Origin: Cladosporium halotolerans
Lineage: Eukaryota
Reading direction: 5' to 3'
Assembly: GCF_011745625.1 (NCBI RefSeq)
Contig: NW_027191473.1
Location: 124,001 to 188,000 of the forward strand
Length of the DNA: 64,000 bases
The notes under the pieces are model-generated. The model had not been told where the DNA came from and did no database searches. It worked only from the letters and a program-made list of their open reading frames with translations. Both the position numbers and the translations under genes were made by a program. Within the stretch, counting starts at the first letter, position 1. Each line of letters starts with the position of its first letter. Shown in pieces: positions 34,812 through 36,860 of this stretch.

Positions 34812-36860
34812 TCAAAGCCTTGCCCGTTCTCGGTCGTCACGAGCGAAGATCCCTTTCACTCGTTGCTTGTCCATTTCGGCTGATTTGAGCACTCGTCTCA
34901 GGAGTTTGCCGGTTGGGCTCTTCGCTGTAGAGGCAAAGTCAGTACGCGTTTCAAACTCAACACATGCCGAGCAAACCTCGTCACGCGTGACGGCCATACG
35001 AAAGGCAGAAGGACGCAACATACTGCGACATCGTCAGCAAACCCAATCCCACGCCATCTCCACTCTCCAAAATCCACTCACCGAATACTTTCCCGAAATT
35101 CCACCTCCACCAGCCACTTATACCTCACCTTCCGCCCCCTCACAAACTCCAACAACGCCCCCGCCAACCCCTCGCTCCCCTCCACGCCCTCTCGCAACAC
35201 AACGACCGCCTTCGGCCTCTCCCCCGCATATGCGTCCTCAACCCCCAGCACAGCCACATCTTCCACGCTCTCGTGCCCCAGCAGCAGATCCTCCAGCTCC
35301 GCCGGCGCAACCTGCTGGCCCTTGACCTTGATCATCTCCTTGATCCGATCCTCGATGAAAATCAACCCTTCCTCATCGATGTGCCCAACATCGCCCGTGT
35401 GCAGCCAGCCGTCGCGGAAGGTCTCGGCCGTGGCCTTGGGGTTGTGCAGGTAGCCCATCGCGATCTGGGGCCCGCGCGCGCAGATCTCGCCCGTCTCGCC
35501 GGGGCCGAGCTCGCGCCTGGGCCCGTCGTCGTCGTCGCCGTCGAGCGAGAGGACTTTGGCGGCTGTGTTGGCGACGAGTTTGCCGGCGGACGTCGCGTAC
35601 TTGTACGCGTAGTGCGAGGGCGGGTGCGCGGAGATGCAGGCCGTCGACTCCGTGGCGCCGTAGCCCTGGCGGAAACCGGTGGAGGGGAAGTTGTGCTGGA
35701 GGAGGGAGATGATTTCGGGGCTGATGGGGGCGCTGCCGGAGGACCAGCGTTTGACGACGTGGCGGAGGGCGGGGAGGTGGGGGCGCGCGAGGGGATCCTT
35801 GACGAGGCGGATTAGGATTGGGGGGACGAGGATGAGCTCTTCGATCTGGTGGGTTGTTATGCAGGTGAGCATGGCGGGGAGGTCGAATTTGGTTAGCATG
35901 AAGCAGTCGCCGTTCATGAGGAGGGGGTAGGTGCAGAAGCGGACGAGACCGGTGATGTGGAAGAGGGGCATGACGGCGAGGATTTTGTAGCGGGTGCCAG
36001 GGGTGACGAGCTGGAGTTGGCGGAGTTGGTGGCATTGGGCGATGATGTTGTGGTGGCTGAGCATGACTGCTTTTGGGAGGCCGGTGGTGCCGGAGGAGAA
36101 ATTCAGGTAGCCTGTTGGGTATTGTCAGTACGTGATATGAGGGTCTGTATGGGATCGTGTGTGGCGAACTGTGGTGCTGGTCAGCGAAGAACGCGTTGAA
36201 ACCGATGATATGGCAGGATCATACCCGCAAACTTCTTTGTTCGTCTGCCCTGTCGATATGCTCCATGCTGGAACCTCATCCATTTTCTCTCCGTCACTGA
36301 TCATGGCCTGAAGACACCTAGTCCCGTCAACCTCTCCCTCCAGCAAGATAATCCTGTCTTTCTCCAACCCCACCGTCTTCGCAGCCTGTACAGCGACATC
36401 CAAGCAAGAGGGCAAAGTGAATATGATTCTACTACCAGCCGTCTTGATAGCATGCACCATCTCATCGACACCATACGCAGGACTGGCACCATTGACTCGC
36501 GCACCAACGCGTAGCGCAGCCCACATGGCGACCGGGTACCAGATGCTGTTGGTGGCGAACAGAGAGACGGTCTCGCCTGGCTGGAGACCATAGGACCGAA
36601 CCAGAACATTACTAAGGGACGTGGCGAGCTGCTTGACCTGAGGAAACGATAGTCTCGACGAAGGGTTGAGTGCGTCGATGTATGCACCCTGTTCAGTCGA
36701 TGATGGGTTGGCGACGGGGGAGTATGAAGGGTGTTCGAAAGCCCATTGCCATGTTGTAAGATCTGTTGGGACTGTTCTCATGTCAATTAGAGACCTAGTA
36801 AGCGAATTCTGAAGAATCCTTACTGTCAAGATCCGGATGAGGCGATTTCCAGATCACCAT
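34812..36860 (-). CDS. 4-coumarate/phenylacetate-CoA ligase-like ANL enzyme, peroxisomal (PTS1 -ARL). Exons 36860-36824, 36771-36226, 36111-35083, 34924-34812; two of the three intervening sequences are stwintrons
   Basis: P-loop YLNFSSGTTGLPK; motifs MPLFH, QGYGATE, GWLHTGD and RIKEMIKVKG; A10 motif IPKSPTGKLLRR; C-terminus ...RERARL*. Confidence 0.93.
34925..35082 (-). other. [D1,2] spliceosomal twin intron (internal 35081-35023; external 35082 + 35022-34925)
   Basis: Minus strand reads ATTC|G|GTGAGT...GCTGAC...GCAG|TATGT...ACTGAC...ACAG|CGAAG. Removing the inner intron creates the donor GTATGT. Confidence 0.85.
36111..36225 (-). other. [D1,2]/[A2,3] spliceosomal twin intron
   Basis: Minus strand reads TGC G|G|GTATGA...GCTGAC...CACAG|TTCGC...ACTGAC...AACAG|GC TAC. 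Two branch points are present, and a single GT-AG excision would frameshift the gene. Confidence 0.85.

Follow-up and report, generated by a model that had tools for sequence, protein, structure and literature searches.

The last intron of a coenzyme A (CoA)-ligase-like gene from Cladosporium halotolerans is a 158-nucleotide (nt) [D1,2] stwintron, located at 34925..35082 on the minus strand of the 64,000-nt stretch of contig NW_027191473.1 analysed here (the window, to which all positions refer). The element shows all the sequence-level characters of this class and is absent from the mature mRNA, and it is an RNA-supported new case of a known type of intron. Stwintrons have been described from 2013 onward, with [D1,2] as the commonest type; most of those described belong to a small number of Sordariomycete and Eurotiomycete lineages, and the class is rarely annotated. 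A sequence-only reading of this DNA had proposed such an intron, and both the sequence and the coordinates that it gave match exactly on the minus strand, where the element reads G|GTGAGT…GCTGAC…CAG|TATGT…ACTGAC…CAG. The excised segment begins with G|GT and is not in itself a canonical GT-AG intron; a full internal U2 intron, within the size bound of at least 42 nt, starts at its second nucleotide; removal of this intron would rebuild the canonical donor GTATGT; the external intron has a branch motif and an acceptor of its own; and in the mature mRNA neither intron is left and the frame is intact.

The anatomy of the element can be followed nucleotide by nucleotide. Exon 3 ends ...GAA AGT ATT C at 35083 and exon 4 begins CG AAG AGC CCA at 34924, so that the stwintron lies in phase 1 and splits the CCG (Pro) codon of an IPKSPTGK motif. 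The first G of the split external donor is at 35082 on the minus strand, present in one DNA-like sequencing run (X1) and, without gaps, in a record from another organism (X5 record 7), both described below. It is followed by the 59-nt internal intron (35023..35081, minus strand), with its donor GTGAGT at 35081-35076, its branch motif GCTGAC at 35038-35033, and an acceptor CAG ending at 35023, the branch A being 11 nt from the 3' end. The remainder of the external intron (34925..35022, minus strand) is 98 nt long, or 99 nt with G35082, and runs from TATGTT at 35022 through ACTGAC at 34943-34938 to a CAG ending at 34925; its branch A is 14 nt from the 3' end, and its donor GTATGT is rebuilt after the first excision. 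Each unit, internal and external, contains exactly one branch-type motif.

The evidence for the excision comes from four sequencing runs (X1, X2, X5, and X8), aligned as contigs to positions 34600-36950. None of them is on record as RNA; X2 and X8 were recognised as spliced RNA from the segments that they skip. Both lack the ordinary GT..AG intron 1 of the gene (52 nt, 36772-36823, minus strand), which serves as an internal control that the contigs of both runs derive from spliced RNA. At the last intron position, one contig of X2 (566 nt long, at a depth of 8.05) connects 34924 directly with 35083 and so leaves out exactly 158 nt; it matches the window over 96 letters on one side of the joint and 325 on the other, with 0 mismatches. 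The joint has the ends CT..CC on the plus strand, that is GG..AG on the strand of the gene, and its placement is free of ambiguity ('both'=0 in the contig listing). The mature junction is ATTC|CGAAG, as had been predicted from the DNA, and we regard it as practically certain; translated across this junction, the mRNA encodes …ESIPKSPTGKLLRR…ARL followed by the stop codon, the very peptide expected from removal of the 158 nt. Two further translations of the sequence-only reading were reproduced: a one-step excision of 157 nt (35081-34925) shifts the frame and gives ...SIREEPNRQ...RS before a stop, whereas removal of the internal intron alone leaves a stop-free in-frame insert with a net gain of 33 amino acids (aa).

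The other two runs bear on the DNA itself. X1 spans the whole 2351-nt stretch in one contig with all three introns present and 0 differences, and is DNA-like. No intron-less copy of the gene is found in X1, and the X2 joint is therefore not explained by a retrocopy. X5 also covers the introns and behaves as DNA or precursor, carrying no information on splicing. Its record 7, a 388-nt contig from another organism (organism B) aligned at 34957-35344, differs from the window at 16 positions with 0 gaps; two of the differences fall in the stwintron (35015 and 35054), neither of them in a splice motif, and G35082, the inner donor, branch motif, and acceptor, and the outer donor are all identical. 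Between organism B and the window there are 2 differences in the 126 positions of the stwintron part and 14 in the 262 of the adjoining exon; the intron is thus no more diverged than the coding sequence, though numbers this small do not bear interpretation.

These contigs also bear on the idea that G35082 arose by mistake in sequencing or assembly, or that the gene is a pseudogene with a shifted frame, in which case the intron would in truth be an ordinary GT-AG intron of 157 nt. In favour of this idea, the assembly may have been made from X1, one of the runs that confirm the G. However, the RNA contig lacks 158 nt and not 157, and the joined exon ends in ATTC; X5 record 7, from another organism, crosses the site with 0 gaps; the frames of four relatives end in ...IR and a stop, as expected from ATT CGG TGA/TAA; and the spliced product is full-length and fits its family, which speaks against a pseudogene. 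An error at this position is accordingly highly improbable. The sequence-only reading had named two findings that would speak against it, an mRNA keeping the 99-nt segment and an erroneous G at 35082; the spliced X2 contig is without that segment, and the G is present and gap-free in both X1 and X5 record 7.

The route by which the 158 nt are removed is constrained by the splice sites. No single GT-AG cut yields the observed junction at 35083/34924. With C35083 as the last letter of the exon and G35082-G35081 as the first two of the excised piece, a canonical external donor requires that a T or C be brought beside G35082, and the internal intron must therefore start at the GT at 35081-35080. 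Enumeration of inner introns starting at 35081 and ending in AG followed by T or C gave four options (5, 19, 59, and 126 nt), of which the 59-nt one alone produces two introns that are both of a workable length and both contain a branch motif, together with a donor (GTATGT) that fits the consensus. The primary transcript already contains a donor GTATGT at 35023, but because exon 4 starts with C and not G, the observed junction can be reached neither by using that donor first nor by the one-step cut from GT35081 to AG34925. For the same reason the alternative [A2,3] route is closed at this site and only the [D1,2] route works, in line with the earlier class assignment, the GG..AG ends leaving the nested route as the sole canonical one. 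Taken together, a nested two-step [D1,2] excision of 35082..34925 is very probable, and from splice-site rules we infer two consecutive U2-type reactions in inner-then-outer order. In such a pathway, the spliceosome would first remove the 59-nt internal intron (GTGAGT...GCTGAC...CAG); G35082 would then be joined to TATGT to form the donor GTATGT of the 99-nt external intron; and a second reaction would remove this external intron (...ACTGAC...CAG). The outcome would be an mRNA reading ATT C|CG AAG, in which the frame is restored along with the Pro codon of ...ESIPKSPTGKLLRR... and the ARL at the C-terminus.

The same 158 nt could be removed in one non-canonical GG-AG reaction, for example if U1 paired with GGTGAGT and cleavage took place one base upstream. 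The RNA contig, which shows the end product and ends GG..AG, agrees with this as well. To our knowledge, GG donors are extremely rare in U2 introns, and a single step would leave unexplained a full second set of signals placed where a nested intron needs it, namely CAG|TATGT and two xCTGAC motifs 11 and 14 nt from the acceptors. The site is, moreover, the sole strict [D1,2] match in the window, with none in shuffled sequence, and the other odd intron of the gene has the same architecture, conserved in six related loci. We therefore consider a single GG-AG step improbable. The strict search used the motif model A for [D1,2] stwintrons as published in section 2.1 of PMC9024468, run on both strands of the window; it returned a single match, at 35082..34925, with 0 matches in 2 reversed controls and 0 in 20 shuffles (500-nt blocks). 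A relaxed [D1,2] pattern, in which any GTNNGN donor is accepted, gave 2 matches, both in the CoA-ligase gene at the odd joints supported by RNA. Shuffled sequence yielded a mean of 2.25 matches to the relaxed pattern, which is thus unspecific; being no richer in the window than in shuffles, it adds nothing to the evidence, which lies in the strict pattern and the RNA joints.

Several points weigh against the nested excision and should be read with it. The splicing intermediate is unobserved in the contigs, which by their nature cannot show it, so that the two-step course is inferred from the mature product. The 158-nt joint comes from one contig of one run, X8 ending short of the region, and contigs drop rare variants, so that minor isoforms, either retaining the 99 nt or mis-spliced, could escape. 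Since X1 may be the window's own source, independent backing for G35082 comes only from X5. Finally, the presence of the stwintron in relatives is suggested indirectly, by the frames ending in ...IR and a stop in four homologues (P0001, P0002, P0006, and P0008).

The host gene has a coding sequence of four exons (34812..36860, minus strand; ATG at 36860, stop codon at 34812-34814), the joins being taken from the spliced contigs of X2 and X8. The spliced exons form a 574-aa frame that is open from Met to the final ARL and stop. Judged from its sequence, the product is a 4-coumarate-CoA-ligase-like acyl-CoA synthetase of the ANL superfamily, with Pfam matches to AMP-binding (PF00501, 6.2e-46) and AMP-binding_C (PF13193, 6.5e-10). 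The AMP-binding_C match ends at profile position 67 of 76, which is the end of the exon, and the stwintron at 35082..34925 thus splits that domain. Motifs of the SSGTTGLPK and PKSPTGK types are both present in the spliced product, and we take them to be those named A3 and A10. The last exon (34812..34924, minus strand) carries the rest of the A10-type motif, with the Lys codon of ...TGK at 34905-34907 (presumably the catalytic A10 lysine of ANL enzymes), and ends with ARL at 34815-34823 and the stop codon. ARL agrees with the pattern [SA][KR][LM] for a C-terminus of the peroxisomal targeting signal 1 (PTS1) type, and the CoA ligase is predicted to be targeted as a peroxisomal-type enzyme. The nearest named homologues are 'hypothetical' or 'acetyl-CoA synthetase-like' proteins from rock-inhabiting Dothideomycetes and from Cladosporium sp. 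NU13 (76% identity), and '4-coumarate-CoA ligase' is the label of many further homologue entries.

Comparison with this family distinguishes the possible products of the last intron. Among 120 listed homologues (P0001 to P0120), 114 are contiguous across the site, through E-F-x-x-x-[IVL]-P-K...G-K; four end at ...IR (P0001, P0002, P0006, and P0008), P0047 ends earlier, and P0074 has three extra residues. A PTS1-like tripeptide [SA][KR][LM] ends 111 of the 120, and it is ARL in 64. A hidden Markov model (HMM) was built from the C-terminal 130 residues of those homologues (58 among the 120) that are at least 540 aa long and have a PTS1-like end, and was used to score five forms of the product. 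The form from which both introns are removed scored best, at 214.8 bits, followed by the product of a weak upstream donor GTATTC (200.7 bits), the form with only the inner intron removed (194.7 bits, the match being broken in two pieces), the frameshifted product of the one-step 157-nt excision (159.1 bits), and the unspliced form (157.5 bits).

Two of these forms represent explanations in their own right. An mRNA retaining the 99 nt could be a deliberate product, encoding an isoform whose A10 loop is longer by 33 residues and which still ends in ARL, so that the stwintron would act as an alternative-splicing switch; the segment is indeed a multiple of 3 and stop-free in frame, for which the rough chance in a random 99-mer is ~0.07-0.1. 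On the other hand, no X2 contig covers the 99-nt external segment (depth 0 in 34995-35073), with the reservation that contigs may miss minor isoforms; a 33-aa insert at this site occurs in none of the 120 listed homologues, as the sequence-only reading had expected; and its product scores 20 bits lower against the family HMM, with a broken match. Such an isoform therefore appears unlikely. The second form joins the weak upstream donor GTATTC (35088) to the acceptor at 34925 and gives an in-frame product, ...FRE-TKSPTGK..., that scores 200.7 bits against the HMM. The RNA junction is 34924|35083 and not 34924|35089, which contradicts this form for the dominant mRNA; the product also loses the conserved [IVL]P of 114 of the 120 homologues and scores 14 bits lower than the product of the nested excision, and we give the upstream donor a negligible probability.

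The gene contains a second non-canonical intron, its intron 2, of 114 nt (36112..36225, minus strand), which is skipped in the contigs of both X2 and X8. In the contig listing the joint appears at 36111-36224 with 'both'=2, corresponding to three equivalent cuts, none of which is GT..AG. A canonical GTATGA...CAG intron at this place would be 113 nt long and would throw the protein out of frame; from the RNA a further G is missing, and it reads ...KEVCGYLNFSSGTTGLPK. A nested arrangement is apparent here too, with G36225 followed by an inner intron of 56 nt (36224-36169; GTATGA..GCTGAC..CAG) and by an outer remainder at 36168-36112 (TTCGCC..ACTGAC..CAG), so that the outer intron would be 58 nt long and would have the donor GTTCGC after the first cut. 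Intron 2 thus reads as a second, older [D1,2] stwintron; since the first letter of the exon behind it is G, it could equally well be removed by an [A2,3] route. The two stwintrons of the gene are unlike each other (alignment score 18).

Six metagenome loci of relatives (L001, L002, and L004-L007) have the intron-2 architecture, placed at this very codon. Two of them, L002 and L005, combine a perfect outer donor, GTGAGT, with a following exon whose first letter is C. The strict model accepts five of the loci, whereas L004 matches in the relaxed version only; in L001, the non-greedy match broke off at an AAG that precedes the true acceptor by 11 nt. Proteins of relatives carry the traces of this intron. 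For example, the full-length relative P0005 has ...ICAYLNFSSGTTG, which is exactly the product predicted for L002 and L005, whereas P0025, an annotated protein of Cladosporium sp. NU13, reads ...ICGEWDLRPIPRQLLLTYHN... at the site. The latter stretch corresponds to the translated outer intron (GEWDLRP...), as in the frame of L005 (L005:764-869), after which YLNFSSGTTGLPKAV is lost. It looks as if the public model of P0025 removes the inner intron only, a mis-annotation caused by a conserved stwintron, in which the outer intron is read as coding and the nucleotide-binding motif SSGTTGLPK is lost. The sequence-only reading had expected an error of this sort from gene finders, albeit at the last intron. 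Elsewhere in the protein, residues 13-29 of P0005 are 17 extra residues placed exactly at the position of intron 1 of the window gene, which suggests that this record retains an in-frame intron 1.

The distribution of the 35082..34925 stwintron is different from that of intron 2. Among metagenome contigs, the best 80 of 142 relatives were kept and the pair of motifs flanking the site was sought by regular expression. Fifteen loci (L001-L004, L006-L013, L019, L020, and L036; 60-74% identity over the matched 170 aa) contain both motifs, always 24 nt apart and with no intron at the site; 65 of the 80 gave no motif pair, and of these L005 was read by eye. In L005 (~2020-2095), an ordinary GTAAGT...CTAAC...CAG intron is found 28 nt downstream, after ...GKLLR, and there is no stwintron at the I|P codon. 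This ordinary intron is probably shared by L002, and P0049 reads into it.

Closer relatives give indirect indications that the stwintron is present. P0001, P0002, P0006, and P0008 are 97, 87, 79, and 79% identical to exon 3, and their contig frames end in ...IR and a stop, just like that of the window, which stops at ATT CGG TGA. If the site held a plain intron, the frame would run on, as IRE or IRK; the ...IR ends thus hint at a G|GT(A/G)A arrangement and suggest, indirectly, that these four relatives have the same one. The stwintron therefore appears to be shared by only a few close relatives. A quick maximum-likelihood tree of exon-3 proteins was made with the window and P0001-P0045, P0046-P0120 being left out. 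In this tree, the window, P0001, and P0002 form a starred clade, and all five rows with the ...IR end fall within a 10-row group (support 81, unstarred), alongside Cladosporium-like rows that run through the site without a break. The ...IR label needs 2 changes on the tree, and the starred branches leave one origin possible. On this evidence the stwintron is lineage-restricted, a single gain and a gain plus loss both being compatible with the tree.

The site is intron-free in all 15 readable loci, and the sequence flanking the 158-nt stwintron shows no target-site duplication. A more far-reaching history, which we consider doubtful, is that of two independent [D1,2] stwintrons in one gene that differ in age: an old one shared with Cladosporium-like relatives, and a young one that may have arrived as a ready-made nested unit and not by an intron landing inside an older one. 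In that case the propagation of [D1,2] stwintrons, so far documented in Hypoxylaceae and Xylariaceae, would also operate in Dothideomycetes, and this genome should hold further copies. Within the 64-kb window there is no second copy of the stwintron, the best other blastn-short match being 17 nt.

The sequence of the stwintron was also considered for symmetry. Aligned to its own reverse complement it reaches a local score of 28, which is attained by 0 of 300 shuffles and corresponds to a perfect 14-nt palindrome at 34979-34992, inside the external intron and off-centre in the stwintron. This palindrome is its sole symmetric feature; overall symmetry and near-terminal inverted repeats are absent from the 158 nt, whose predicted RNA fold is no better than that of shuffles (z -0.35).

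[D1,2] stwintrons with experimentally confirmed intermediates have been reported, for example in the Aspergillus gene lipS (PMC5639578), and intermediates have also been shown experimentally for the stwintron of a DHA1 antiporter gene (PMC5587772), and catalogues made for Hypoxylaceae and Xylariaceae hold hundreds of stwintrons (PMC9024468; PMC12403724). As described for A. nidulans and A. niger, lipS, which encodes a putative lipase, resembles the present case in having an internal U2 intron between G1 and U2 of the donor, a G|GT at the 5' end, and a phase 1 position splitting a Pro codon (PMC5639578). The introns are likewise small and of similar size, with 52 nt inside 57 nt in A. niger lipS and 59 nt inside 99 nt here. 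The nature of the evidence differs, the lipS intermediate having been cloned and sequenced whereas the present excision is known from the mature junction; host gene, fungal class, and sequence are all different and unrelated (PMC5639578). The CoA-ligase stwintron fits exactly the model A given for the [D1,2] stwintrons of Hypoxylaceae and Xylariaceae (PMC9024468; also PMC12403724 and PMC8469720) and, like the sequence-similar stwintrons of those families, it occupies a position that is empty in relatives (PMC9024468). Unlike the sister stwintrons reported there, it has no sister copy within the 64-kb window and no terminal inverted repeats or overall symmetry (PMC9024468), and its host is a Cladosporium-related Dothideomycete rather than a member of the Xylariales. 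In the [D1,2]/[A2,3] stwintron of the DHA1 antiporter gene, a next exon starting with G allows two routes to the same mRNA, which holds for intron 2 here (PMC5587772; PMC5639578). In contrast, 35082..34925 is followed by C and is open to the [D1,2] route only, and introns one nucleotide apart were not seen among the relatives examined. In the literature searched, which included the main text of PMC9024468, PMC5639578, and PMC12403724, supplementary tables aside, no stwintron in a CoA-ligase gene or in Cladosporium was found.

Stwintrons are among the few cases in which the history of intron gain is readable from sequence, and an RNA-supported case in a Cladosporium-related Dothideomycete, in a gene that would offer a natural pair of a young and an old stwintron, is of interest in this respect. 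There are also consequences for annotation. Ordinary gene finders are unable to model a GG..AG excision, and at 35082..34925 the likely mis-annotation is either a catalytic loop lengthened by 33 aa or a shift of frame by which the putative catalytic Lys and the peroxisomal signal are lost.

The neighbourhood of the gene in the window is ordinary, with a PDR-type ABC transporter, a GH35 beta-galactosidase, a ferric reductase, and a sugar transporter among other genes, and no obvious cluster. Close behind the stop codon, and partly within the 3' untranslated region covered by an X2 contig, there is a degenerate array of ~58-nt units (34321-34750) that comprises two families, D1 with 5 copies and D2 with 3, at 60-71% identity and with the core GATTCGGCACATGCAGAATTG; the array was missed by Tandem Repeats Finder and was revealed by a second repeat search.

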